Positions 8,935 to 23,835 of a stretch of 64,000 nucleotides of DNA are shown here, piece by piece. Numbering within the stretch: position 1 is the first letter of the stretch; each line of letters starts with the position of its first letter. Position numbers and translations under genes: made by a program. The stretch covers positions 2,924 through 66,923 of the forward strand of contig CAYTRW010000003.1 in NCBI GenBank assembly GCA_964440325.1, in the 5' to 3' direction. The stretch is from an uncultured Pseudomonadota bacterium (GTDB lineage: Bacteria; Babelota; Babeliae; Babelales; Vermiphilaceae). The notes under the pieces are model-generated. The model saw only the letters and a list, made by a program, of their open reading frames with translations. It searched no databases and was not told where the DNA came from.

Positions 8935-11028
8935 TTATAGTCCCATGCTTTTAAAAAAAGCATCACTTTCTGGGGTTCTTCCCAAAAAATTAATAAGAAG
9001 GTCAGTTGGGTCACACGTTCCACCTTTTGCCAGTATGCATGTAGCGTATTTTGAGCCAATTTCTGGATTTAAAAGTCCATAGATTTTTATTTGATCAAAA
9101 ATATCCAGCGCAAATACTTTTGACCACATATAACCATAATATTTTGCATCATATCCACAGAGATGTCCAAAGTTGGCGTACATGTGATTTTCTTCATCAA
9201 ACCGTGAAGTGCTGATAAATGTTTCATATGCCTCTTTAAACAATCGGTAAATATCAACAGAGTCATCTTTTTGGTGTAAATTAAGAGAAACAAATGATAA
9301 CCATACTTGTCGCTGCAAAAAACTTCCAGATCCATCGTTTTTGAGTGCGATTATGGTATCAATAGTTTGATCATCAAGAGTTTCTCCGGTCTTGTAATGG
9401 CAACTAAGCATTTTTAAAATATCTTTATTATCAATCCATTCTTCAAGCATTTGAGATGGAAGTTCTACAAAATCTCTTTTTACATTGGTACCTGAAAGAC
9501 AAGCGATTGTTGTTGCTCCAAACAATGCATGCAGCGCGTGGCCAAATTCATGAAAGAATGTACTTACATCTGAGCGCTTTAAAAGAGCAGGGGAATCACT
9601 TGTTGCTCTGGGGAAGTTTGCCATAACAACAACGGCTCCAGGATGCAATGTGTTTTCTTCTGTTAAAAAAGCAGGAATAAAACTTGCTTTTGCAGCATGA
9701 GAAAATTTGCCTTCACGAGGGAAAAGATCAAGAAAAATAGACCCATATAATATTTTTTCATCATTGTCATAAAGTTGAATACAGAGTACATCCTGATGCC
9801 AAGATTTAGTGAGGGGACAACTTTTGAGCTTTATATTAAAAAAAGACTCATAAATTGAAAAAAGGCCTTTTATAGTATGATCTAGAGGAAAGTATTCTGC
9901 TATTTTTTGTTCATCAAGATTAAAATGATTTTTTTTGTATTGAGTTTGTAAAAAAATACCATTCCATGGATCAATCTTCCCATCATCGTAGAAGGATACC
10001 GATTCAGGAAGGTTTTGTGTCCAGGTTGCAAGTTCTTGTTTTGCTTTTATTTGTGCTTTTTCAAGTAATTCATTTAAAAAACTTTTTACTGTTTCAGGAT
10101 CTTTTGCCATTTGATCTGCTAGGTCAAAGTGTGCGTATGTTTTAAACCCAAGAAGTTGGGCAAGCTTATTTCGCTTGATAAGGATCTCTTGCAGCAGGAC
10201 TTCATTCATTGGATATGCACGATTATTAAATGCACGAGAAAGGCGCTTGCGCGTATCTTCTACGATACAATTTTCCATAATGGTATAAAATGTTGGGTAA
10301 TCAACGCCAACAATATATTTTCCTGATGAATCTTTTGGGAGCCTTTGCACAAATGCATCGTCAACTCCTGCAAGATCTTCTTTGGTTGCTTGAATAGAGC
10401 TGCAGTCTTCTGCAATATTCCGTTCAAATTGTACAGAAAGAGATGCGATTTCTTTTTTAAGATTGGAGACTTGTTCAAGAAGTTCATCAGGAAGATTGAG
10501 CCCTTGCCGTTCGTAATCAGCTATTGTTTCAGCAATAAAATACTGCTGTTCAGGTGAAAGAGAGGTATTATTTTTATTATTAACAGCAAAAATTTTGAGT
10601 GATTTATAAAGGGCTTTATTGCTTCCAAGTTTATCAACATAAAATGACTGTAAGAGGATTATTGCTTCATGAGCTGCATCACGAACTTCTTTTCGAGGGC
10701 TTACTGATTCAAGAATAGAGCACAGATTAGAAAAGAGTGCAAGATTTGATTTTGCGCATAAATTATCAAAGGCCTTAAAGCTATTTTGATATGTTTGTTT
10801 ATCTGCAGAAATAGTAAGAATATGTGCAATTTCTTGTTCTGCTTGGGCCATAAACATATGGGCTTTGTTTTTTATTTCTTCTGGTTCAAGTAAAAAACAT
10901 TGAGTGAGTGTATTAATATTGTATGAACTATTTAGCATATCGATGTCCCGAGAGCAAAATCCAAGGCGTACTACACAGAGGGTAAGTATGCAAAGGGTTG
11001 TCAAAATTCCTATTTTTATCGCATTCAT
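8935..11028 (-). CDS. M3-family zinc metallo-oligopeptidase (oligopeptidase A/thimet/Dcp-like) with an N-terminal signal peptide
   Basis: HEXXH zinc motif in FFHEFGHALHALFG and overall M3 architecture at 697 aa. Hydrophobic N-terminus MNAIKIGILTTLCILTLCVV. The start overlaps the uvrB stop (ATGA coupling), which supports the long N-terminus. Confidence 0.85.
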   Translation of the reverse strand: MNAIKIGILTTLCILTLCVVRLGFCSRDIDMLNSSYNINTLTQCFLLEPEEIKNKAHMFMAQAEQEIAHILTISADKQTYQNSFKAFDNLCAKSNLALFSNLCSILESVSPRKEVRDAAHEAIILLQSFYVDKLGSNKALYKSLKIFAVNNKNNTSLSPEQQYFIAETIADYERQGLNLPDELLEQVSNLKKEIASLSVQFERNIAEDCSSIQATKEDLAGVDDAFVQRLPKDSSGKYIVGVDYPTFYTIMENCIVEDTRKRLSRAFNNRAYPMNEVLLQEILIKRNKLAQLLGFKTYAHFDLADQMAKDPETVKSFLNELLEKAQIKAKQELATWTQNLPESVSFYDDGKIDPWNGIFLQTQYKKNHFNLDEQKIAEYFPLDHTIKGLFSIYESFFNIKLKSCPLTKSWHQDVLCIQLYDNDEKILYGSIFLDLFPREGKFSHAAKASFIPAFLTEENTLHPGAVVVMANFPRATSDSPALLKRSDVSTFFHEFGHALHALFGATTIACLSGTNVKRDFVELPSQMLEEWIDNKDILKMLSCHYKTGETLDDQTIDTIIALKNDGSGSFLQRQVWLSFVSLNLHQKDDSVDIYRLFKEAYETFISTSRFDEENHMYANFGHLCGYDAKYYGYMWSKVFALDIFDQIKIYGLLNPEIGSKYATCILAKGGTCDPTDLLINFLGRTPESDAFFKSMGL

Positions 11029-13022
11029 TTTTTTTTCTCATTTTTTTGGGGCAATTCAATTTGTTGATTTAATGCAATCCATTCTTCTCGTAATGTGATC
11101 GCTGTTTCAAAATCTAGCTTTTCAGCAGCGCGTTGCATTTGTGCTTCAAGAGCAATAAGTCTTGCATGAATCGCTTCTGGGCTTGTAGCGTCTTTTTGTT
11201 TTTCTTCTTTTTTACGTTGTTTGCTGGCTTGTGCAATTGCATGTTGGATGCCAGAGATTGATTTAGTGACTTCACGCATGACTGTTGAAGGAGTAATGTT
11301 ATGTTTTTTGTTATAATCTTGTTGTAGTTGTCTTCTGCGCGCAGTTTCATGCATGGCAGATTCCATAGACTTTGTAATGGTATCTGCATATAAAATAACG
11401 TGAGAATCTGCATTGCGTGCAGCTCGCCCAATAATCTGGATTAATGAACGTTTGTCTCGCAAAAAACTTTCGATATCTGCATCCATAATTGCAACAAGTG
11501 CAACTTCTGGTAAATCAATTCCTTCGCGTAGCAGGTTTACACCTACTAGACAATCAAATTCTCCTGCGCGCAACTTTAAAAGCAACTCTGTTCGTTGTGG
11601 TGTTTTTAGTTCGCTGTGCAAATAACATACTTTTATGCCACGATCTTCAAGGTATTGTGCAAGCTCTTCAGCAAGTCGCTTGGTCATAACCATAACCAAA
11701 GACCGGTAACCTTTTTTGGTAGTTTCTTGAATCTGTTTTTGCAGATGTGTTAATTGGTTTTCACGCGGATGGATGGTTATTGGTGGATCTATCAGTCCTG
11801 TTGGGCGAATAATTTGCTCAACAGCTTTTTGTGAATGTGAAAGTTCATATTCACTTGGTGTTGCAGAGACAAAAATTGTGTCTTTAAAATATTTTTCTAT
11901 TTCTTCAAATTTAAGAGGACGATTGTCGTAGCTTGATGGCAATCTAAAGCCAAATTCGATTAGTGCTTTTTTGCGTGCACGATCGCCTGCATACATACCA
12001 CGAAGTTGAGGAATTGTAATATGAGATTCATCAATAATTAACAAAAAATCATCGGGGAAAAAATCAAATAAGCAAAAGGGAGGCTCTCCCGTTTTTCTGC
12101 CATCAAAATAGGATGAATAGTTTTCGATACCTGAGCAAAAACCGGTTTCTTTGATCATTTCTATATCGTGAGACACGCGTTGTTTTACTCGTTCTTGATA
12201 TACTTGATTTTCAAGTTGTGGCCACCAATCATCAAGATCGCGCTTGATCATAGAAAGAGCTGTTTCTTTTTTTTCTTCTGTTGTAACAAAGTGCTTGGCC
12301 GGTAAAACGATAGCATTATCAAGGCTCAAAAGAACAGTGTTTTGTTGTCTATTAACCCATTGCATTCGTTCAATACTAGATCCAAAAAGTTCAATGCGAA
12401 GTTTTTCTTTTTGGTATGGCAATATAATCTCAATAGAATTTCCTATTACTTGAAAAGTTCCTGGATCACGAGAGACGTCATTGCGTTTGTATTGAATAAA
12501 AATGAGTGCGTGAATAAGTTCATTTCGATTTATTTTTTGTCCAACATGAAGTTGCAAAGAAAGCTCTTTATAATCAGTTGGATTTCCCAATGAATAAATA
12601 CATGATACTGATGAAACAACAATTGTATCAGAACGATTAATTAAAGAAGCAGTAGCTTCTATGCGGAGTCTTTCAATTTCGCTATTAATGAGAGTTTCTT
12701 TGGGAATATACATATCTTGTGCAGGAAGATATGATTCAGGCTGATAATAATCATAATAACTTACAAAATAACAGACTTTGTTTTGAGGGAAAAAAAGAGA
12801 AAACTCCTCATATAATTGAGCAGCAAGCGTTTTGTTAGGAGCAAGGATTAGTGTAGGCTTTTGTGTGTGTGCAATAACATTGGCAAGAGTAAATGTCTTA
12901 CCAGATCCTGTTACTCCCACAAGCGTGGAAATACTTGGTCGTTGTGTGATAAGCTCTGCAATAGCGGCAGGTTGTCCCCCAGCAGGTTTAAACGGAGAAT
13001 GAAGTATGAATTTTTTTTCCAT
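11025..13022 (-). CDS. uvrB: Excinuclease ABC subunit B
   Basis: Walker A GVTGSGKTFT, full-length UvrB architecture, and the C-terminal UvrB/UvrC interaction motif (LDFETAITLREE). Confidence 0.95.
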   Translation of the reverse strand: MEKKFILHSPFKPAGGQPAAIAELITQRPSISTLVGVTGSGKTFTLANVIAHTQKPTLILAPNKTLAAQLYEEFSLFFPQNKVCYFVSYYDYYQPESYLPAQDMYIPKETLINSEIERLRIEATASLINRSDTIVVSSVSCIYSLGNPTDYKELSLQLHVGQKINRNELIHALIFIQYKRNDVSRDPGTFQVIGNSIEIILPYQKEKLRIELFGSSIERMQWVNRQQNTVLLSLDNAIVLPAKHFVTTEEKKETALSMIKRDLDDWWPQLENQVYQERVKQRVSHDIEMIKETGFCSGIENYSSYFDGRKTGEPPFCLFDFFPDDFLLIIDESHITIPQLRGMYAGDRARKKALIEFGFRLPSSYDNRPLKFEEIEKYFKDTIFVSATPSEYELSHSQKAVEQIIRPTGLIDPPITIHPRENQLTHLQKQIQETTKKGYRSLVMVMTKRLAEELAQYLEDRGIKVCYLHSELKTPQRTELLLKLRAGEFDCLVGVNLLREGIDLPEVALVAIMDADIESFLRDKRSLIQIIGRAARNADSHVILYADTITKSMESAMHETARRRQLQQDYNKKHNITPSTVMREVTKSISGIQHAIAQASKQRKKEEKQKDATSPEAIHARLIALEAQMQRAAEKLDFETAITLREEWIALNQQIELPQKNEKKK

Positions 13023-13083
13023 CTTCTTATTTTTTAAACAAAATATGCGTGTTTTTTTTACAAGAGTATCATGGTTTCTTTGT

Positions 13084-14004
13084 ATGAAAAAACAAATTAT
13101 TGTAATTCTGGCGCTTTTATTTAATATTCCTAGTTTTGGGCTGCAGATTTTTTGGAATGCTCTAAAGAAAAGTATGTTTCCTCAAAAAAGCGAGGAGCAA
13201 CTTTTTAATGAGGCGCTTAATCAAACATATCGATCAAAATATACGCAGTTTGCGCGTTTTTTAGAAAAGCATCCGTTGTGGGTTTTTAAAATTGATTCAT
13301 ATATGCAGTCTGTGTATATGAATGATGTTGTTGAGAAAAAAGATCATGCCAATATTGTACGATTTATTAATGCAGGAATTTCTCCAGATATTCTAGATTA
13401 TTATGGATGCCCATTGCTTGCGCGTGCTATTTTAAGCCATGCAACAGAAACAGTTAAAGTGTTATTGCAGTGTGGATCAGACCCTGAAAAATGTGATAAA
13501 AATCATTTGTCTCCATTGTATTATGCGTGTGTTTTAAAAAAAAAAGAAATGATTAAGTTGTTGGTAAGTGCAGGCGCATCTTTAGATAGGTATATGTTTG
13601 GTAAATTATTATCTGCTGGTACGCATAATGATATTGTTTCGTATGTATGGCAGTTGGTAGATGAAAACCCTGTGTTAGCAGCATCAGAAGGATCTTTGTA
13701 TACCAATAATTTTTCAAGACCTATAGATTTTGCGGTATGTTATTCTCGTTCAGTTACCGGTAAAATAACGCCATTACATGCTCTTTTAAAAAATAAACAT
13801 TTTGATGCAGCATTGACTATCTTTAAGAGCCTTATTGATGAAATTGAAAAGGATCCAAGCAATAAAAGAGCTGCAATTGCAGCTCTTGTTATTTTAAAGC
13901 ATCCTATGCATGATGATAGAACAAAAGCAATTTTAGGGAGAACGTTAATATTTGATTCTAATGGTCGGGTACGAGATTCTTTTATGGAAAAGCTTATGCA
14001 ATAA
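13084..14004 (+). CDS. Secreted ankyrin-repeat protein
   Basis: Signal peptide MKKQIIVILALLFNIPSFG. Ankyrin-type repeats follow (GCPLLARAILSHATETVKVLLQCGSDPEKCDKNHLSPLYYACVLKKKEMIKLLVSAGASLD). Start placed at the internal ATG 13084, since the longer ORF would overlap the divergent uvrB. Confidence 0.7.
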   Translation: MKKQIIVILALLFNIPSFGLQIFWNALKKSMFPQKSEEQLFNEALNQTYRSKYTQFARFLEKHPLWVFKIDSYMQSVYMNDVVEKKDHANIVRFINAGISPDILDYYGCPLLARAILSHATETVKVLLQCGSDPEKCDKNHLSPLYYACVLKKKEMIKLLVSAGASLDRYMFGKLLSAGTHNDIVSYVWQLVDENPVLAASEGSLYTNNFSRPIDFAVCYSRSVTGKITPLHALLKNKHFDAALTIFKSLIDEIEKDPSNKRAAIAALVILKHPMHDDRTKAILGRTLIFDSNGRVRDSFMEKLMQ

Positions 14005-14005
14005 A

Positions 14006-15178
14006 TTATAAAACCGTTCCATAAAATTCTGTTAAACGATCTCCCATTACCTGAGGCATGTAAAAGCGTGAAGTGCGCCATGCATATTCTTGGAGTAGCA
14101 TGTGCAAGTCTTTATCCTGTCTAATTTGCATGATGACTTCTGCCATTTCTTGGGGTGTTTTTACCAAGAAACCATTCATTCCATTTCTGATAATATCACG
14201 TTGCCCTGGGCCGTCTACTGATACAACAGGGGTTCCGCAAGCCATTGATTCAGCAAGAACAATCCCCTGAGTATCTGTTGTTGAAGGAAATAAAAAGAGG
14301 TCCGATCCTTTATAAAACTCAACTAATTCAAGGCCTTTTGATTCTTTGATAAAAAGTACACTTGCGCGGGGTAATCGTAAGCGATCATAGGCATACGATA
14401 CAATGTTTTTGTATTCATCACCGTTTCCAATAACAATGAGTTTAAAATCATTAGGGAGGAGTTTAAATGCTTCAAGCGCAAATAGTATATTTTTTTCTTT
14501 TACCATGCGGCTTACTAGTAAAAGTCTAAATAATTCAAGGCGATGCTTTTGCTTGCAAGGACGGTTTTCATGAATAAAAAAAGATTGTAAAGCGCTTGGT
14601 ATAACTGTAGTTGGCGTAGAGACGCCTTGCTTTATAATATGTTCTTTTACTGCTGTACTTGGAACAATGACAGCATCAACAGCATTGCAATATTGTGTTG
14701 CATATCGTTTTGCAAACCATTGAGCTATTTTTTGAGGGCAGTGAAAATAGTGAGCATAATATTCATAGAGTGTATGATAGGTAAATACAATAGGAATAGA
14801 AAGTTTGCGAGCAACAGCAAGAGCTGCTTTCCCTAATAAAAAAGGATGATGAGTATGAATAATGTCTGGTTTTAGTTCAGAAATAATAGCGGAGAGTTCT
14901 TTTTGTGGGAAAAAGGGAATAGCAATATGTTTTTCTTTGTAAGTAAAGTGTATTGGACATGTAATCCGAAATACATAAGGAGGATCTTGGGGTCGATTAG
15001 GTGCTTTTTTGCTTAAAAAATCAGGAGCAGCAATAAATACTTCATGTCCTGCTAAAGAAAGGGCTTCTGTTGCAGCATTGATTGAGCTTACGACTCCTGC
15101 AGAATAAGGAGTGTAGTTATTAGTAACAAAGAGAATGCGTAGCTTTTTTGATTGTTTCATAATTGTATGATGGTTCAA
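14006..15178 (-). CDS. Glycosyltransferase family 4 (GT-B, group 1)
   Basis: N-terminal RILFVTNNYTPYSAGVVSSINAATEALSLAGHEV and a C-terminal GT1 domain with the E-x7-E region. Confidence 0.8.
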   Translation of the reverse strand: MNHHTIMKQSKKLRILFVTNNYTPYSAGVVSSINAATEALSLAGHEVFIAAPDFLSKKAPNRPQDPPYVFRITCPIHFTYKEKHIAIPFFPQKELSAIISELKPDIIHTHHPFLLGKAALAVARKLSIPIVFTYHTLYEYYAHYFHCPQKIAQWFAKRYATQYCNAVDAVIVPSTAVKEHIIKQGVSTPTTVIPSALQSFFIHENRPCKQKHRLELFRLLLVSRMVKEKNILFALEAFKLLPNDFKLIVIGNGDEYKNIVSYAYDRLRLPRASVLFIKESKGLELVEFYKGSDLFLFPSTTDTQGIVLAESMACGTPVVSVDGPGQRDIIRNGMNGFLVKTPQEMAEVIMQIRQDKDLHMLLQEYAWRTSRFYMPQVMGDRLTEFYGTVL

Positions 15179-15188
15179 TATGTAAAAA

Positions 15189-15632
15189 TTAACACCACAT
15201 CTTTGATATCAGATAATCAAGAGAAAAGCGACCAGATCCTGAAATTGAAAGTGAAATAAGGGCGATAAAAAGAGTTATAGGTAAAGCAATGGCATTAGTT
15301 TTAGTATCCTTTCTTTTATGTACATCAATTGCTACCAACATGACGCACGCTATTAAAAGAGCAGCAAGTCTCATTTTTAATCCGATAATGCAAAGCAACC
15401 CTCCACATGTTTGGATTAGTGATGCAAAAATGCCCCAAAGCGTGGGAGTAAAGGTGATACCAAAAGATGCAAGTTGAGAACCCATCCATTCCCACTCAGC
15501 CTTTCCTTTTTTCAGATGCTCAAATCCATAATGAAAAAAAAGAGCGCCAACTCCTATCCGTAGAATCAAGATACCAAGATCTTTTGAAAAAACTGTTCCC
15601 GCTGATGAAATAAACGAAAGAAAGTTTATCAT
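15189..15632 (-). CDS. DoxX-family membrane protein
   Basis: About 145 aa and 4 TM; DoxX signature LILRIGVGALFFHYGFEHL. Confidence 0.7.
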   Translation of the reverse strand: MINFLSFISSAGTVFSKDLGILILRIGVGALFFHYGFEHLKKGKAEWEWMGSQLASFGITFTPTLWGIFASLIQTCGGLLCIIGLKMRLAALLIACVMLVAIDVHKRKDTKTNAIALPITLFIALISLSISGSGRFSLDYLISKMWC

Positions 15633-15644
15633 AAATACTCCTTT

Positions 15645-16037
15645 TTATATCAAATGATAACTTGTAATAAGCAACAGGATATTAATGATATATATGCTTG
15701 TACAGAGCAGGCATGCAGTGCGAATGATAAAATATAAAATACTCGCAAGAACTATTGCCCCTCCAAAGCCAAATATACTTAATGCAAAAACTGTTTTATA
15801 TAAATCAAAGAATGATGCAGTAATAATTGCACTATAAAAAATAATGCCCCAGACACTGTTTGAAATCGCAAAAAAAGTAGCATATTTGCTTGTAATTACT
15901 TTTGAGCACGAAACTTTATCAGAAATATCACAAAAGGGAACATAGTTTTTATTTGTTTTAATTTTTTGCTCAAGAAAATATGCGTAAGCGGATACGCATA
16001 TGCCAAAAATGGCTAAAATGCTGGTAGATACAATCAT
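15645..16037 (-). CDS. VKOR (vitamin K epoxide reductase)-like membrane thiol oxidoreductase, a DsbB analogue
   Basis: Loop Cys pair (FCDISDKVSCSKV) and a CxxC at the start of the last TM (ACLLCTSIY). Start set at the internal ATG 16037, because the longer ORF would overlap the transaldolase gene by 100 nt. Confidence 0.6.
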   Translation of the reverse strand: MIVSTSILAIFGICVSAYAYFLEQKIKTNKNYVPFCDISDKVSCSKVITSKYATFFAISNSVWGIIFYSAIITASFFDLYKTVFALSIFGFGGAIVLASILYFIIRTACLLCTSIYIINILLLITSYHLI

Positions 16038-16062
16038 CAAAATGCTCCTTTTTTTGCAATGA

Positions 16063-16722
16063 TTATGGGAATTGAGTGGTGTTTGTTTTTGCCCAATCTG
16101 TGTTAAATTGTTGAATTCCGTGGTCTGTAAGTGGGTGTGCCATAATTTTTTCAAAAAGTGCACCCGGAATTGTTATAGCATCTGCCCCTGCCAAAAGTGA
16201 TTCATGTACATGTCGTACGTGACGGATTGAGGCAGCAAGAATTTTTGTTTTAAATCCGTAGGTATCTATTATCATACGCAACTCGCGAATTACCTGAGTG
16301 CCATCAATGTCTATATCATCCCATCGTCCAATAAAAGGAGAAATATAATCTACGCCAAGTTTTGCCATTAATAATCCTTGAATTGCACTAAAAACAAGGG
16401 TGATATTTAGGGGAATATTTTCTTTTTTAAGTTGATGAATAATAGGGTAATAGTTTTTGTGGCATGGGATCTTCACCAAAATATGTGGAGAGATTGCTGC
16501 TATTTTTTTTGCTTGCAGGTATGCCTTTTGGGGATCGTCTTCCGTTATTTCAACACTTATTATCCCTTCTTTAAAAAGAGATAAAATGTCTAGAATGTTT
16601 TGCTTTGGGTTAGTTCCATTTTGAGCAAGCAAAGAAGGGTTTGTAGTAACCCCATCGATTAATCCTGTAGGGATATATTTTTGTATAATATTTATATCTG
16701 CGGTATCAAGAAAAAGCTTCAT
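16063..16722 (-). CDS. Short-type transaldolase / fructose-6-phosphate aldolase (Tal/Fsa family)
   Basis: MKLFLDTADI... with TGLIDGVTTNPSL; the 219 aa length matches the short transaldolase class. Confidence 0.85.
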   Translation of the reverse strand: MKLFLDTADINIIQKYIPTGLIDGVTTNPSLLAQNGTNPKQNILDILSLFKEGIISVEITEDDPQKAYLQAKKIAAISPHILVKIPCHKNYYPIIHQLKKENIPLNITLVFSAIQGLLMAKLGVDYISPFIGRWDDIDIDGTQVIRELRMIIDTYGFKTKILAASIRHVRHVHESLLAGADAITIPGALFEKIMAHPLTDHGIQQFNTDWAKTNTTQFP

Positions 16723-16734
16723 AATAATCCTTTT

Positions 16735-17046
16735 TTACTGATTTTTAATGACCCATTTTTTTCTTGCAAACGGTTGTTTAGCCGGTAAAGGGGTTTCTTT
16801 TTTAGGGGATACTGCTTTAGTGTTGCAAGGAGGAATGTAATTGTCTATAACAATGCAAAAAAAACGGCAAGAAGAGTATGGTTCATGACGATAGCGATCA
16901 GAGCATAAAGAGCTGTGCAAAGATGATGAAATGGTAAGACAAAAAAGTACAAAAGAAAAAGAATTAAAAAAAATAGACATATGATTAAAAAAGTAAAAAA
17001 TAAAAATGATTTGTTTTAGTAAAACAAAAAAAGGGGGGAAGGGCAA
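16735..17046 (-). CDS. Small cysteine-containing secreted protein; probable start at internal Met MSIFFNSFSFVLFCLTISSSLHSS...
   Basis: Hydrophobic signal-like segment, then LCSDRYRHEPYSSCRFFCIVIDNYIPPCNTK... with 4 or more Cys. Tightly packed in the minus-strand operon with VKOR and DoxX. Confidence 0.35.
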   Translation of the reverse strand: MPFPPFFVLLKQIIFIFYFFNHMSIFFNSFSFVLFCLTISSSLHSSLCSDRYRHEPYSSCRFFCIVIDNYIPPCNTKAVSPKKETPLPAKQPFARKKWVIKNQ

Positions 17047-17052
17047 TCCATT

Positions 17053-17691
17053 CTATGCTTTTTTGATTTGTTCCATAGTTCGATGTGTTAGTGCTGAATG
17101 CAAAATGGCTTTAGCAGGTTTTTTGGTAGTAGATGCATATGCATCACCCATTTTTATTAAAAGCCATTGATCTTCATGGGTATGAATAAGAGAAAAAGCT
17201 CCCTGCAATACGTTTCCGGATAGTATTATTTTAATGTGTCCTTTTTTAAGTTGTTCTTTTAAGGAAGGAGTTTTTTTGTTGGGGAGAATATACGGTTCAA
17301 AGGTGCCGTAATCCCAAATCATTACGGTTCCTGCTCCATAATTATCTTTTGGAATTACGCCTTCAAATTGTGCGTATTCAAGAGAATGGTCATCTGTTCT
17401 TATTGCAAGACGTTTATTTTTTGGATTTAATGAAGGACCTTTTGGAATGGCCCATGAGACAAGCACTCCTCCAATTTCAAGGCGAAAGTCAAAATGCTTG
17501 TGAGAAGAGTCATGCTTTTGAATAACAAAAATTGGCTTTTTCTTTTTTCGATTTATTTTTTTTGTGGAAGAAGATTCGGAAGATTTTTTAAAAGAGCGAT
17601 GTGCAGAATAGGTATTGAGTGAATGATCTTTTTTCATAGCATTTGCACAAAAATTAAAACATAACATAAAAAAGCAAAACAAAATAAGCAC
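17053..17691 (-). CDS. Stand-alone LigD-type 3'-phosphoesterase (PE) domain protein with a hydrophobic N-terminus and a Lys/Arg-rich linker
   Basis: Core FVIQKHDSSHKHFDFRLEIGGVLVSWAIPKGPSLNPKNKRLAIRTDDHSLEYAQFEGVIPKDNYGAGTVMIWDYGTF matches the LigD phosphoesterase signature (H-x-H, RLE, WAVPKGPS, D-H-P-L-DY, GGG-TVM-WD). No ligase, polymerase or Ku in the window. The first codon is GTG; alternative ATG starts at 17667 and 17637. Confidence 0.7.
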   Translation of the reverse strand: MLILFCFFMLCFNFCANAMKKDHSLNTYSAHRSFKKSSESSSTKKINRKKKKPIFVIQKHDSSHKHFDFRLEIGGVLVSWAIPKGPSLNPKNKRLAIRTDDHSLEYAQFEGVIPKDNYGAGTVMIWDYGTFEPYILPNKKTPSLKEQLKKGHIKIILSGNVLQGAFSLIHTHEDQWLLIKMGDAYASTTKKPAKAILHSALTHRTMEQIKKA

Positions 17692-17826
17692 AAGCGTCTG
17701 CCATGGTAATAACTTTTTATGTACTATACTGACTTACAAATACGTGATGCAAGAGTTTATTATTTTTAGTGACGAGCAAGAGATCAGGCGATATACTCAA
17801 AAAAACAGTGACCGTGAAAGGGAATC

Positions 17827-18414
17827 ATGCTTGCATATATAACAGGGACTGTGAGCTTTACGCAAGAATCTTCATTAATTCTTCAAGCAGCAGGATTTGG
17901 ATTTTTGATTTTTACGCCAGAAGGGTATTTTTTTGCTCAAAATCAGACAGTAACATTGTATGTGTATTTGCATTGGCAACAAGATCAAGCGCCAACGGTG
18001 TATGGGTTTAAAACAGAAGCAGAAAAAACGATTTTTTGTTTATTGCTTGAATGTTCTGGGATTGGTCCAAAAGTTGCACTTGCCGTGTTATCAAAATTAG
18101 GGATTGAGCAAATTGTGCATGCCATTCATCAAGAAGATGCCCGAATTTTGAGTAGTGCTCCTGGTGTAGGTATAAAAAAAGCAGAGCAGATGATTTTGCA
18201 TCTCAAGCATAAGGTAGATAAAATTGCAGGGCTTACGTATCAAGCAAGTGAATCTTCAAGTGCGCTACACGATGTTATTCAGGCACTTAATGCATTAAAT
18301 TATTCAAAAGCAGAAATTAGTTTTGCAATTAATCAGCTTAAACATGATGAGAGTGTACAGAATAAAACATTTGATTATATGCTAAAAAAAGCGCTCGCTC
18401 ATTTGGCAAAGTAG
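17827..18414 (+). CDS. ruvA: Holliday junction branch-migration complex subunit RuvA
   Basis: MLAYITGTV... OB-fold N-terminus, HhH region (GIGPKVALAVLS), C-terminal domain III. 195 aa. Confidence 0.9.
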   Translation: MLAYITGTVSFTQESSLILQAAGFGFLIFTPEGYFFAQNQTVTLYVYLHWQQDQAPTVYGFKTEAEKTIFCLLLECSGIGPKVALAVLSKLGIEQIVHAIHQEDARILSSAPGVGIKKAEQMILHLKHKVDKIAGLTYQASESSSALHDVIQALNALNYSKAEISFAINQLKHDESVQNKTFDYMLKKALAHLAK

Positions 18415-20924: not shown

Positions 20925-23117
20925 TTAGCGACAGGACAAGTCAGAAGTCAGGTATTCTTTTAAAAGAGTAAGGCGTTCTGTTTTGTTACAGTTTTTTATT
21001 GCCATAGCCAAAGCGCGTGCTTGTCCTACGATGATACATAATTTTTTGGCACGGGTAACAGCGGTGTACAGTAAATTCCGCTGGAGCATCATAAAGTGCC
21101 CCATAAAAAGAGGGATTATGACAGCTTGATATTCCGATCCCTGACTTTTATGGATAGAGATTGCATATGCAAGAACGAGTTCATCAAGCTCTGATTGTTC
21201 ATAGGGTACTGTGCGGTCGGGATATCGTACATGCATACGGTGATCTGATGTATCAATAGTTTGTACAATGCCAATATCACCATTAAAAACATTTTTATCA
21301 TAATTATTTTTGATATGCATTACACGATCACCTTCACGATAGGTGTATCCACCATACGTTAAAGATGACTTTTGTTCTGCAGTGTTCAAAAATGTTTGCA
21401 TAGTATGATTGAGAGCATATGTTCCGGTGATGCCACGATTCATGGGAGAAAGCACCATGGTTTCATCAAAAGGGATATGAGCGGCGCGAAGTTTTTTTGC
21501 TAACAATTCTTTTAAGATGTCAGCAAAACCTGCAGGATCATCTTGCTTGATAAATAAAAAATCTTTTTTTGATTCAGAAGATATTTGAGGGACAGGAAAT
21601 TCTCCATTGTTAATACGGTGAGCATTAACAATGATCATGCTGTCTTGTGCTTGTCTAAAAATTTGTGTTAATCGAATGGTAGGTATTTTTTGTGTTGCAA
21701 TTAGATCATTTAAGACATTTCCTGCTCCAACAGAAGGAAGTTGGTCGACATCTCCTATAAAAATGACATGTGCATAACGAGGAACAGCTTTTAAAAGAGA
21801 AGATGCCAAAAAGATATCGATCATTGATGCTTCATCAAGGATAAGAAAATCAAGAGCAAGCGCATTTGACTCGTTGCGCGTAAAGCGCATGGTAGCAGGG
21901 TCAAACTCCAGAAGCCGATGAATGGTTACGGCTTCTTTTTTTGTACTTTCTGTAATGCGTTTTGCAGCACGTCCTGTTGGAGCAGCAAGACGATATGCTA
22001 TTTTATGAGCATCAAGAATGGTCAAAAGTTGCTTGATAAGCGTAGTTTTCCCTGTTCCTGGGCCACCCGTTATGATAGTTATTTTTTCTTGTAGGCAGGT
22101 CAATATACCTTTTTGTTGATCTTCATTTAATGCGATATTCTCATTTTGTGTGCGTAATTGGGTGTAAACATGCTCAATATCAATAGGGTGTCGAGTTGCG
22201 CATGCACGTATGTGGTCTATGCAAAGAGCAATATTCTTTTCATTCCAGTAGTTGCTATTTGTTGTCACAAAATGTTCATTTTGTTTACTGATAAGTTTTA
22301 TTTTTTCATCATTATAAAGAGCATGAAACGCTGTTTTTATAATATGAGCATGATCGGGGAGTGAAATCTCAAGAAGCTCAGCAGTTTTTGTTTTAAGGGC
22401 ATTAAGTTCAACATAAACATGTCCAAATCCAATATCAGTTGCTAAGACGTGCAGTATGCCTGCTCTGCATCTTTTGGGAGAATCATGGCGCATTCCCATG
22501 TTTTGAGCAATATCATCAGCCATTTTAAAACCGATTCCCCAAATATCTTCTGCAAGTCGATAGGGGTTTTCAATAATCAAATCAATTGCACGTGTTCCAT
22601 ATTGTTTAAAAATTTTGACGGCATATGTTGTAGAGATGCCTTTTTCTTGTAAAAAAAGCATAATATGAGAGATTTCACGTTGATCAATCCATGCATCGAT
22701 AATTGTTTCAGCGCGCTTTTGTCCAATGCCAGGAACTTCTTTGAGTCTTTGTGGCTCTTTATCAATAATATCAAGAACCGCCTTGCCAAAATAGGTAACG
22801 AGTTTTTCTGCGTATGCAGGACCAATTCCTTTTATAAGTCCAGATCCTAAGTATGCAATGAGACCTTTAGTGCTTGTAGGCCGTTCAACAGTGCATGATA
22901 TTGCTTCAAATTGTTTGCCAAATTTAGGGTGAACAACCCATGATCCGCTAATTAAAATATGTTCACCCGGTTGAATATTTGGGATAATGCCGCGTGCAGT
23001 TACTTCATGCTTAGTAGAAAGTGACAGCACAAAAACAGCATATCCATTTTCTTGATTGCGATATACAATCTTTAAAACGGATCCAGATAGTTTTTCAGTG
23101 TGATTTTCTAAACTCAT
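20925..23117 (-). CDS. RecD2-type SF1 5'-3' DNA helicase (RecD/TraA family)
   Basis: N-terminal OB/HhH region, Walker A ITGGPGTGKTT, and SF1 helicase motifs (DEASM, QLPSVGAGN, ...AISIHKSQGSEY). 730 aa. Confidence 0.85.
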   Translation of the reverse strand: MSLENHTEKLSGSVLKIVYRNQENGYAVFVLSLSTKHEVTARGIIPNIQPGEHILISGSWVVHPKFGKQFEAISCTVERPTSTKGLIAYLGSGLIKGIGPAYAEKLVTYFGKAVLDIIDKEPQRLKEVPGIGQKRAETIIDAWIDQREISHIMLFLQEKGISTTYAVKIFKQYGTRAIDLIIENPYRLAEDIWGIGFKMADDIAQNMGMRHDSPKRCRAGILHVLATDIGFGHVYVELNALKTKTAELLEISLPDHAHIIKTAFHALYNDEKIKLISKQNEHFVTTNSNYWNEKNIALCIDHIRACATRHPIDIEHVYTQLRTQNENIALNEDQQKGILTCLQEKITIITGGPGTGKTTLIKQLLTILDAHKIAYRLAAPTGRAAKRITESTKKEAVTIHRLLEFDPATMRFTRNESNALALDFLILDEASMIDIFLASSLLKAVPRYAHVIFIGDVDQLPSVGAGNVLNDLIATQKIPTIRLTQIFRQAQDSMIIVNAHRINNGEFPVPQISSESKKDFLFIKQDDPAGFADILKELLAKKLRAAHIPFDETMVLSPMNRGITGTYALNHTMQTFLNTAEQKSSLTYGGYTYREGDRVMHIKNNYDKNVFNGDIGIVQTIDTSDHRMHVRYPDRTVPYEQSELDELVLAYAISIHKSQGSEYQAVIIPLFMGHFMMLQRNLLYTAVTRAKKLCIIVGQARALAMAIKNCNKTERLTLLKEYLTSDLSCR

Positions 23118-23835
23118 TCCAGAGCTCTTTGACCGTTTCTATAGAAATAGCAGTAAGCTTTTCTGTTAAATGATGTTTGACTACGTAGGCAATAAAGCGT
23201 TTTTCTTCTTGTGGTGATACAGTTGCTATTTTTGGAAGAAGATCATGAATAACGTGAAGCCTTTCCATGCGTTGCTTAAAGAGCGCATGTGCCTTTGGAC
23301 AACTGTTAATAATATCACTTAAAAAGGTTAAAAGATCAAGGCAGAACTCATTAAATTTTTCAAATGTTGTGATAGTTTTATTAAAGTGTTCATGCTCTTC
23401 TTGTTCTTCTACTTCAGCCCATCGCAAAAGGAGACTAAATGGTTTTGTGTGAATGCGTGCCCATTCTCTGATGAGTGGAATAAATTGTGCTTTTGATCCA
23501 TGAGCTGCAGCCATGCATTGAGCACTTACTTCAAGAAAAGAAGCTTTAAGTTCTTTTAAAAGAGCATTCTTTTTTTCAATCAGTATGCTGCCTTTTTGTT
23601 CTAAAGAGATTAAATCTTGTATAGAAAGAGATTCTTGTGTGTGTGGTCCCTTTAAAAGATGTTCAACTTTTGTTCCAAGTTGATACATATGTCCGATGTC
23701 ATTTTCTTTAATAAGAAGTCCATCAAGTGCAGCAGCTGTTGGCAGGATATCATGAGAAGATTCTGATGTTTTTGCATACATTGATGAAACGGTGAGTGCA
23801 CACAAGTATCCGATATAAAAAATCTTTTTGTTCAT
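23095..23835 (-). CDS. Hypothetical secreted protein (246 aa)
   Basis: Signal peptide MNKKIFYIGYLCALTVSSMYA. Its 3' end overlaps the recD2 start by 23 nt, so it is probably co-transcribed. Confidence 0.4.
   Translation of the reverse strand: MNKKIFYIGYLCALTVSSMYAKTSESSHDILPTAAALDGLLIKENDIGHMYQLGTKVEHLLKGPHTQESLSIQDLISLEQKGSILIEKKNALLKELKASFLEVSAQCMAAAHGSKAQFIPLIREWARIHTKPFSLLLRWAEVEEQEEHEHFNKTITTFEKFNEFCLDLLTFLSDIINSCPKAHALFKQRMERLHVIHDLLPKIATVSPQEEKRFIAYVVKHHLTEKLTAISIETVKELWNEFRKSH

Follow-up and report, generated by a model that had tools for sequence, protein, structure and literature searches.

A free-standing LigD-type 3'-phosphoesterase with a recurrent hydrophobic 5' extension in a Dependentiae-type genome

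What might a LigD-type 3'-phosphoesterase (PE) be doing on its own in the chromosome of a Dependentiae-type bacterium, and why does its reading frame open with a hydrophobic, signal-like segment that runs into a strongly basic one? The gene lies on the minus strand of the 64,000-nucleotide stretch of DNA analysed here (the window), and its longest frame, which begins at GTG 17691, also holds TTG 17682, ATG 17667 and ATG 17637 as in-frame candidate starts. The parts of the gene are as follows.

17053..17691, minus strand: the PE gene's longest open reading frame, which begins at GTG 17691 and encodes 212 aa, the stop codon being counted in the coordinates; matched by PF13298 and TIGR02777
17638..17691, minus strand: in-frame hydrophobic 5' extension, residues 1-18, (M)LILFCFFMLCFNFCANA; an anchor or signal if translated, with an AF2 helix at residues 2-17
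17053..17637, minus strand: canonical PE coding sequence, 194 aa, MKKDHS..., from ATG 17637, the start of the NCBI protein P0001
17533..17637, minus strand: PE N-peptide, residues 19-53, including the basic "NLS-like" KKSSESSSTKKINRKKKKP, from profile alignment and the AF2 model
17185..17520, minus strand: PE beta-barrel catalytic core, residues 58-169, holding H60, H66, D68, R70, H102 and Y106
17056..17142, minus strand: C-peptide, residues 184-212, with a conserved S-x-L-T-x-R-T-M-x-Q-I, aligning to the 5dmp C-terminus and to NF004628

The ORF encodes an intact LigD-type 3'-phosphoesterase. Pfam LigD_N (PF13298), the search that an earlier note on this DNA had named as the check on its call of a LigD phosphoesterase, matches residues 58-169 with an E-value of 1.2e-40 and 138.4 bits, well above the cut-off of 31.1, and the call is further upheld by TIGR02777 (LigD_PE_dom), which spans residues 25-183 with 187.3 bits (cut-off 144). 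The NCBI protein P0001 is identical to the window protein over 194 aa (100%). The best solved relative by sequence is PDB 5dmp (E 6.5e-46, aligned over residues 51-211), the stand-alone NHEJ PE of Methanocella paludicola, which is the best match in fold as well (TM-score 0.89, 48% identity); both proteins are full-length PEs with an N-peptide, a beta-barrel and a C-peptide. In the AF2 model (pLDDT 87), the N-terminal helix is followed by a disordered stretch at residues 20-43 (pLDDT below 50) and a beta-barrel at residues 54-180 that has the eight-stranded PE fold. With this model as the query, Foldseek returned the PE structures 5DMP, 3N9B, 3P43, 3P4H and 2LJ6 (E 4e-17 to 2e-10; target-normalised TM-scores of 0.89 for 5DMP and 0.90 for 3N9B), and the next match after these stands at E 0.03. 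The fold is the same as that of the Pseudomonas aeruginosa LigD PE (PaePE; 3N9B and 2LJ6; TM-score 0.90, rmsd 1.2 A), with which the window protein has in common both the six active-site residues, three His, an Asp, an Arg and a Tyr that are essential in PaePE, and a disordered basic N-peptide (PMC3082917). The corresponding window residues, H60, H66, D68, R70, H102 and Y106, are invariant in an alignment of 46 sequences. In PaePE these positions are His42, His48, Asp50, Arg52, His84 and Tyr88. Across the catalytic core, dN/dS is 0.10-0.12 against two sister contigs at dS up to 1.0, and the enzyme is therefore under purifying selection. The gene itself is ordinary, as stand-alone PE enzymes are already well known, having long been recorded in bacteria, archaea and eukaryotes (PMC3082917).

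The basic segment has a similarly familiar explanation. A K-rich stretch is present at residues 35-53 as the earlier note described, but its resemblance to a eukaryotic monopartite NLS does not survive comparison with the family. The profile alignments begin at residue 25 for TIGR02777 and at residue 22 for NF004628 (a LigD model), which places the basic stretch inside the PE domain envelope. The window stretch starting SLNTYSAHRSFKKSSESSSTKK aligns to the PaePE N-peptide PLAEYARKRDFRQTPEPSGRKPRK, and the PaePE segment YARKRDFRQTPEPSGRKPRK is the counterpart of the basic linker; in PaePE, this N-peptide is disordered, protease-sensitive and important for 3'-phosphatase activity (PMC3082917). 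Among 119 close homologs, the 13 residues before FVIQKH hold a median of 5 K/R (the window, with 7 of 13, is at the high end), K[KR]x[KR] is matched in 58, and 19 carry at least four consecutive K/R. The segment is basic across phyla: some free-living mycobacteria match K[KR]x[KR] too, and free-living Mycobacterium PEs have RRRRR runs. KKINRKKKKP is, on these alignments, the normal disordered, DNA-end-binding N-peptide of a PE; its basic character belongs to the family, and no module for nuclear targeting has been added. The N-peptide is degenerate in the window's subclade when set against PaePE: of the three PaePE residues that matter for 3'-phosphatase activity, Arg14 and Glu21 are retained as R32 and E39, but Asp15 has become S33, HRSF stands for KRDF and SSESSS for TPEPxG, and dN/dS within the subclade is 0.6-0.7.

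The surroundings of the gene comprise the following features.

17827..18414, plus strand: ruvA, the divergent neighbour (Pfam RuvA_N, HHH_5 and RuvA_C), syntenic in L081 and L082
17692..17826, no strand assigned: intergenic region between PE and ruvA, with presumed promoters; conserved with L081 and L082
16735..17046, minus strand: small ORF in the gap between PE and the transaldolase gene, with no Pfam or NCBIfam match; a doubtful gene
14006..16722, minus strand: downstream same-strand block (Pfam), syntenic in L081-L083 and, in part, also in L091 and L167
16063..16722, minus strand: transaldolase (TAL; Pfam)
about 15645..16037, minus strand: VKOR (Pfam)
15189..15632, minus strand: DoxX (Pfam)
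14006..15178, minus strand: GT4 (Pfam)
11025..13022, minus strand: uvrB, excision repair, near PE also in L081, L083, L091 and L167

The window is ordinary chromosome of about 35% GC that also carries ribosomal protein S1, BamA, GroEL, ATP synthase alpha, PBP2, RecD2, UvrB and RuvA, and its nearest proteins and loci come from Dependentiae/Babeliales MAGs; no more than 6 kb separates the PE gene from ruvA, recD2 or uvrB. Three sister contigs (L081-L083, at 86%, 71% and 57% protein identity to the window) have the order ruvA (divergent), PE, gap, TAL, VKOR, DoxX, GT4, Ank and UvrB, the most distant of them (57%) beginning at PE, with the ruvA position outside that contig, and a further locus (L167) shows a PE..TAL..GT4..UvrB arrangement. 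The earlier proposal of a tight operon headed by PE can be retained in part: TAL, VKOR, DoxX and GT4 lie on the same strand and are syntenic in relatives, but the PE-TAL junction is a gap of 330 nt. A consensus scan of this gap gave no terminator-like site and no convincing promoter, and it gave no minus-strand promoter upstream of PE (17692..17826); promoter-like sites in the region are no commoner than in shuffled sequence. The small ORF within the gap, which had been taken for a Cys-rich secreted protein, is doubtful as a gene. Its frame is open in L081 and L082, yet gene callers leave it uncalled in both, the cysteines are lost in relatives, and its divergence far outpaces that of PE, with identity dropping to 35% where PE stays at 71%.

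Partners were sought with HMMs for LigD Prim-Pol (primase-polymerase), ATP-dependent ligase, Ku and Fpg, which were derived from gene clusters in other fetched loci and whose identities were verified by Pfam. They were searched against all six-frame ORFs of at least 60 aa in the 64 kb; at E<1e-5, none of the four had a match in the window or in L081-L083. The PE is stand-alone here, as had been claimed, and no Ku, ligase or polymerase accompanies it in the window. However, the wider statement that it lacks NHEJ partners is specific to this lineage, as eight other Dependentiae-type loci have a Prim-Pol and one more has a fusion. A LigD_Prim-Pol gene lies directly 3' of PE, overlapping it or spaced by a few bases, in L001, L003, L004, L009, L011 and L165; in L018 the two are 245 nt apart, and in L014 an MBL-fold gene stands between them. 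In L091, a 560-aa PE-PrimPol fusion is followed by VKOR, TAL, GT4 and UvrB, which is the neighbourhood of the window, and this fusion bears the same kind of hydrophobic N-terminus as PE, whereas the downstream Prim-Pols of the eight loci have no hydrophobic N-terminus in any case. The Dependentiae Prim-Pols are 45-49% identical to stand-alone Prim-Pols, versus 35-41% to LigD-fused Pol domains. Ku (PF02735) and ligase were absent from every Dependentiae-type locus examined (10-kb flanks), and no ATP-dependent ligase or Fpg adjoins PE among the Dependentiae loci examined. Since Prim-Pol adjoins or is fused to PE in relatives and is missing here, the window locus looks like a version of the Dependentiae PE(-PrimPol) repair locus that is without the polymerase. 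The 330-nt gap and its small ORF were also considered as a Prim-Pol remnant and rejected, as hmmsearch --max gave E of at least 2 and tblastn with the L091 fusion gave noise.

Comparison with known systems places this locus closest to Ku-independent repair. The archaeal 5DMP enzyme has Ku, Pol and Lig as separate partner proteins, none of which is visible in the window, and lacks the hydrophobic N-terminal extension that the window PE possesses. PaePE forms the N-terminal part of a PE-Lig-Pol fusion protein, with Ku as its partner, whereas the window protein is free-standing. A Ku-LigD NHEJ assignment would call for Ku in the genome, usually adjacent, and for an ATP-dependent ligase and a Pol fused or adjacent to PE; neither the window nor L081-L083 has a match for any of these. 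In mycobacteria, LigC/Prim-PolC consists of stand-alone LigD-like parts that carry out Ku-free repair of gaps and single-strand breaks (PMC5663958), and the mycobacterial loci fetched here, with PE-Lig-PrimPol-Fpg near uvrB, are in line with that report. The PE of Dependentiae, with or without Prim-Pol, is likewise found near uvrB. However, the mycobacterial module has both a ligase and a Prim-Pol, the Dependentiae relatives have only the Prim-Pol, and the window has neither, so the likeness is one of working in a similar way and not of membership in the LigC module. A literature search returned nothing on NHEJ or LigD in Dependentiae.

The signal-like N-terminus pointed out earlier is present as the hydrophobic residues 1-18, and it is recurrent: a hydrophobic N-terminal segment occurs in 66 of 121 close homologs, and L081, L082 and L083 all keep this frame open and hydrophobic. 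Upstream of the canonical start, 11 of 17 independent low-GC loci have a frame without a stop for at least 27 codons, against 2 of 34 control frames taken from the other two frames (Fisher p=1.5e-5), and Shine-Dalgarno (SD) motifs precede the upstream starts of L009, L011, L024 and L164-L166. The extension is therefore real, under selection and, in many relatives, probably translated. Conservation is seen at the canonical start as well. A Met occupies this position in 53 of the 64 extended homologs, where about 17% would be expected; several of the extended homologs without this Met have Val in its place, which in L167 is a GTG with an SD; an SD precedes the canonical start in L011, L024, L083, L164, L165, L166 and L167; homologs that are not extended begin at this position; and NCBI likewise starts the window protein (P0001) at ATG 17637. 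This conservation argues that a soluble 194-aa enzyme is probably made from ATG 17637. In the window itself, no SD precedes any candidate start, though 22 of 43 window genes have one, and where the sister contigs have their upstream ATG the window has ACG, so that GTG 17691, without an SD, is left as the upstream candidate. The form beginning at GTG 17691 has no basic n-region, and A-N-A immediately precedes Met19, whereas relatives often show a basic n-region, a hydrophobic stretch and a small-residue c-region, a few of them with perfect lipoboxes such as LIAGC or LAGC. For the extension, dN/dS is 1.49 and 0.27 in two comparisons on 17 codons, which are too short to inform.

Such an extension fits the signal-rich habit of Dependentiae as seen in Chromulinavorax destructans, in which signal peptides are predicted on 44% of CDS and the proteins predicted to be secreted include nucleases (PMC6561590), although that paper makes no mention of PE or NHEJ parts. 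What differs here is that the PE extension is followed by an internal start that is conserved and by a segment that is strongly basic. A search of the literature for signal peptides on PE returned nothing.

Taken together, these data incline us, without great assurance, towards a functional stand-alone PE that acts in the cytoplasm as a 3'-end-healing enzyme of Ku-independent repair. Judging from the family, its His/Asp/Arg/Tyr manganese site would clear nicks, gaps or breaks of 3'-phosphates and 3'-terminal ribonucleotides, and would thereby regenerate 3'-OH ends for a polymerase and a ligase within a pathway of Ku-independent excision or gap repair that may be analogous to mycobacterial LigC/Prim-PolC. 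Many Dependentiae have the PE gene coupled in translation to a gene for a LigD-type primase-polymerase, or fused to it; the window lineage lacks this polymerase neighbour, and its PE is set between ruvA and the TAL-VKOR-DoxX-GT4...uvrB block. Should a long form be made from GTG 17691, a membrane tether that leaves the enzyme in the cytoplasm would be likelier than an export signal. The charge of the protein points in this direction. Over the 18 residues that follow the hydrophobic stretch, the net charge is +4 in the window and has a median of +4 in the family, versus a median of +1 in 27 other signal-bearing ORFs from Dependentiae loci that served as controls (Mann-Whitney p=1e-9 for extended PEs against controls). 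Membrane proteins follow the positive-inside rule, and Sec export is intolerant of a basic early mature region; a basic flank of this kind thus favours a cytoplasmic catalytic domain. A cytoplasmic location is favoured also by the coupling or fusion of PE to a signal-less primase-polymerase.

It is possible, though improbable in our estimation, that the PE is instead exported. On this account, translation would start at GTG 17691, a Sec or lipoprotein signal would carry the enzyme to the periplasm, the cell surface or the host, and its substrates would be host or incoming nucleic acids, whose 3'-phosphate or 3'-ribonucleotide ends it would trim, for example for nucleotide scavenging or as a nucleomodulin. 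The recurrence of a signal-like extension whose frame is kept open, the A-N-A before Met19, the lipobox-like motifs in P0008, P0017, P0082 and L018, the SD motifs at upstream starts of several relatives, and the signal-rich proteomes of Dependentiae with their nucleases (PMC6561590) are all consistent with export. However, an early mature region compatible with translocation would be neutral or acidic, and the window has +4 there; the supposed NLS is the canonical N-peptide and is present in free-living bacteria; and the GTG-initiated window protein has no basic n-region. In addition, the partner Prim-Pol is translationally coupled to PE and carries no signal, and in L091 it is fused behind a similar hydrophobic N-terminus, an arrangement in which export would place an NTP-dependent polymerase where it has no obvious role. 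The secreted or host-targeted enzyme that was originally suggested is accordingly disfavoured, by this signal-less partner, by the basic flank and by the conservation of the canonical cytoplasmic start.

We regard a membrane-tethered or dual-isoform enzyme as a tentative and rather unlikely alternative. The N-terminus would face outwards and the catalytic domain would remain in the cytoplasm, the internal start would add a soluble isoform, and in relatives the coupled polymerase would also be held at the inner membrane. Such an arrangement would account for an upstream frame that is open and has an SD while the canonical Met or GTG is kept with an SD of its own, for a charge bias that favours a C-terminus inside, for the AF2 helix at residues 2-17 with its disordered basic linker, and for the hydrophobic N-terminus of the L091 PE-PrimPol fusion. 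The length of the uncharged stretch has no discriminating power, its median of 17 residues in PE being no longer than the 18 of the putative secreted controls, and the dN/dS of the extension is uninformative. The window, moreover, with ACG for the ATG of its sister contigs, would have to initiate such a form at a GTG that has no SD, and we know of no membrane-bound LigD component. More broadly, Dependentiae might produce two PE isoforms from two in-frame starts that each have an SD, although we consider this rather doubtful; the short form would then serve soluble repair and the long form, by way of an anchor or signal, would place the enzyme at the membrane or outside the cytoplasm, a division that we likewise think unlikely and that, with no greater likelihood, would extend in some genomes to the PE-primase-polymerase fusion. 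Far less probable than any of these is a decaying relic, in which the PE would be drifting towards loss after the loss of Prim-Pol and would have no current role. The lack of Prim-Pol, ligase and Ku in the window and sister contigs could be read in this way, as could the relaxed N-peptide with its dN/dS of 0.6-0.7 and its change of the PaePE Asp15 to Ser, but the frame is intact, all catalytic residues are kept, the core remains constrained over dS up to 1.0, and the gene has been retained in four diverged contigs.

What is mildly new is that obligate intracellular Dependentiae widely keep a module of PE and primase-polymerase while the loci examined show neither Ku nor an ATP-dependent ligase within 10 kb, which points to Ku-independent end-healing and gap-filling in reduced genomes. 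It is also mildly new that a conserved hydrophobic N-terminal extension is present on over half of these PEs, ahead of a canonical start that is itself still conserved. If the long form is real, the question becomes why a DNA-end enzyme goes to the membrane; if it is not, the extension serves as a warning on start-site calls and signal-peptide counts in the phylum. A membrane-bound or exported long isoform, if true, would be the first such member of the NHEJ-type toolkit and might act on incoming or host nucleic acids. On an NJ tree, the extension clusters weakly (34 changes vs 45.7 in shuffles), and this clustering may partly reflect the start choices of gene callers. A scan of metagenomes with the window PE recovered mostly soil PEs, at no more than 52% identity among the matches listed.

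The stand-alone LigD-type 3'-phosphoesterase (PE) seems to have a recurrent partner that has not been described before, an MBL-fold hydrolase. The hydrolase gene, assigned to Pfam Lactamase_B_2, is found at four of the PE homolog loci:

L164:10645-11373, MBL-fold hydrolase gene
L166:10651-11373, MBL-fold hydrolase gene
L014:9760-10467, MBL-fold hydrolase gene
L085:3-230, MBL gene, partial

In two Babeliales loci (L164 and L166) this gene overlaps the 3' end of the PE gene, and in L165 the syntenic position is occupied by a LigD-type primase-polymerase (Prim-Pol). PE, MBL and Prim-Pol are consecutive, in that order, in L014, while Fpg, PE and Pol adjoin the partial MBL gene in L085. Both L002 and L164 lie on JBFXEV010000001.1 (Babeliales), a single genome with two PE paralogs ~180 kb apart, of which P0024 carries the hydrophobic N-terminal extension and the MBL partner, and P0098 has neither extension nor partner.

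In Mycobacterium/Actinomycetota loci (L008, L013, L015-L017, L026-L028 and others), a stand-alone PE opens an array that continues with an ATP-dependent ligase, Prim-Pol and Fpg/Nei, and uvrB lies a few kb off. Dependentiae likewise place PE, with or without Prim-Pol, near uvrB (the window, its sister contigs L081 and L083, L091 and L167). L091 joins the two domains:

L091:5420-7099, PE-PrimPol fusion, 560 aa

The N-terminus of this fusion is hydrophobic and lipobox-like (MKKIHVFFILFMIMGC), and VKOR, transaldolase, GT4 and UvrB follow 3' of it, as in the neighbourhood of the window.

The basic N-terminal PE segment (N-peptide) is degenerate throughout the window subclade, both in the window and in the homologous segments of the PE proteins P0002 and P0003:

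17533-17637, minus strand, degenerate PE N-peptide

The family KRDF and TPEPxG are replaced by HRSF and SSESSS or, in P0003, by IQNF and NPNEIF. Within the window subclade the dN/dS of this segment is 0.6-0.7, and every member of the subclade lacks an adjacent Prim-Pol.

Two further window frames lie downstream of PE:

16735-17046, minus strand, small hydrophobic ORF between PE and transaldolase
15645-16163, minus strand, longest VKOR ORF, 172 aa from GTG 16163

The small ORF is skipped by gene callers; its frame is open in the sister contigs L081 (71% identity) and L082 (35%), where its cysteines vary, and L083 has an unrelated 135-aa ORF in the equivalent place. The longest VKOR ORF overlaps the transaldolase end by 100 nt, and because VKOR is called as 130 aa in relatives, its true start probably lies near 16037.

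The PE extension may not be restricted to Dependentiae. In a Chlamydiae MAG (L067:9860-10001), 48 open codons precede PE in frame and contain the hydrophobic stretch WLKIFIISTLIL, with only GTG or TTG available as starts. Signal-like N-termini also occur on many window proteins, e.g., 8935-11028 (minus strand), 13006-14004 (plus) and 23095-23835 (minus); a homolog of M3 oligopeptidase and a protein with ankyrin repeats are among those that carry them. This agrees with the abundance of signals reported in Dependentiae proteomes (Chromulinavorax report, PMC6561590).
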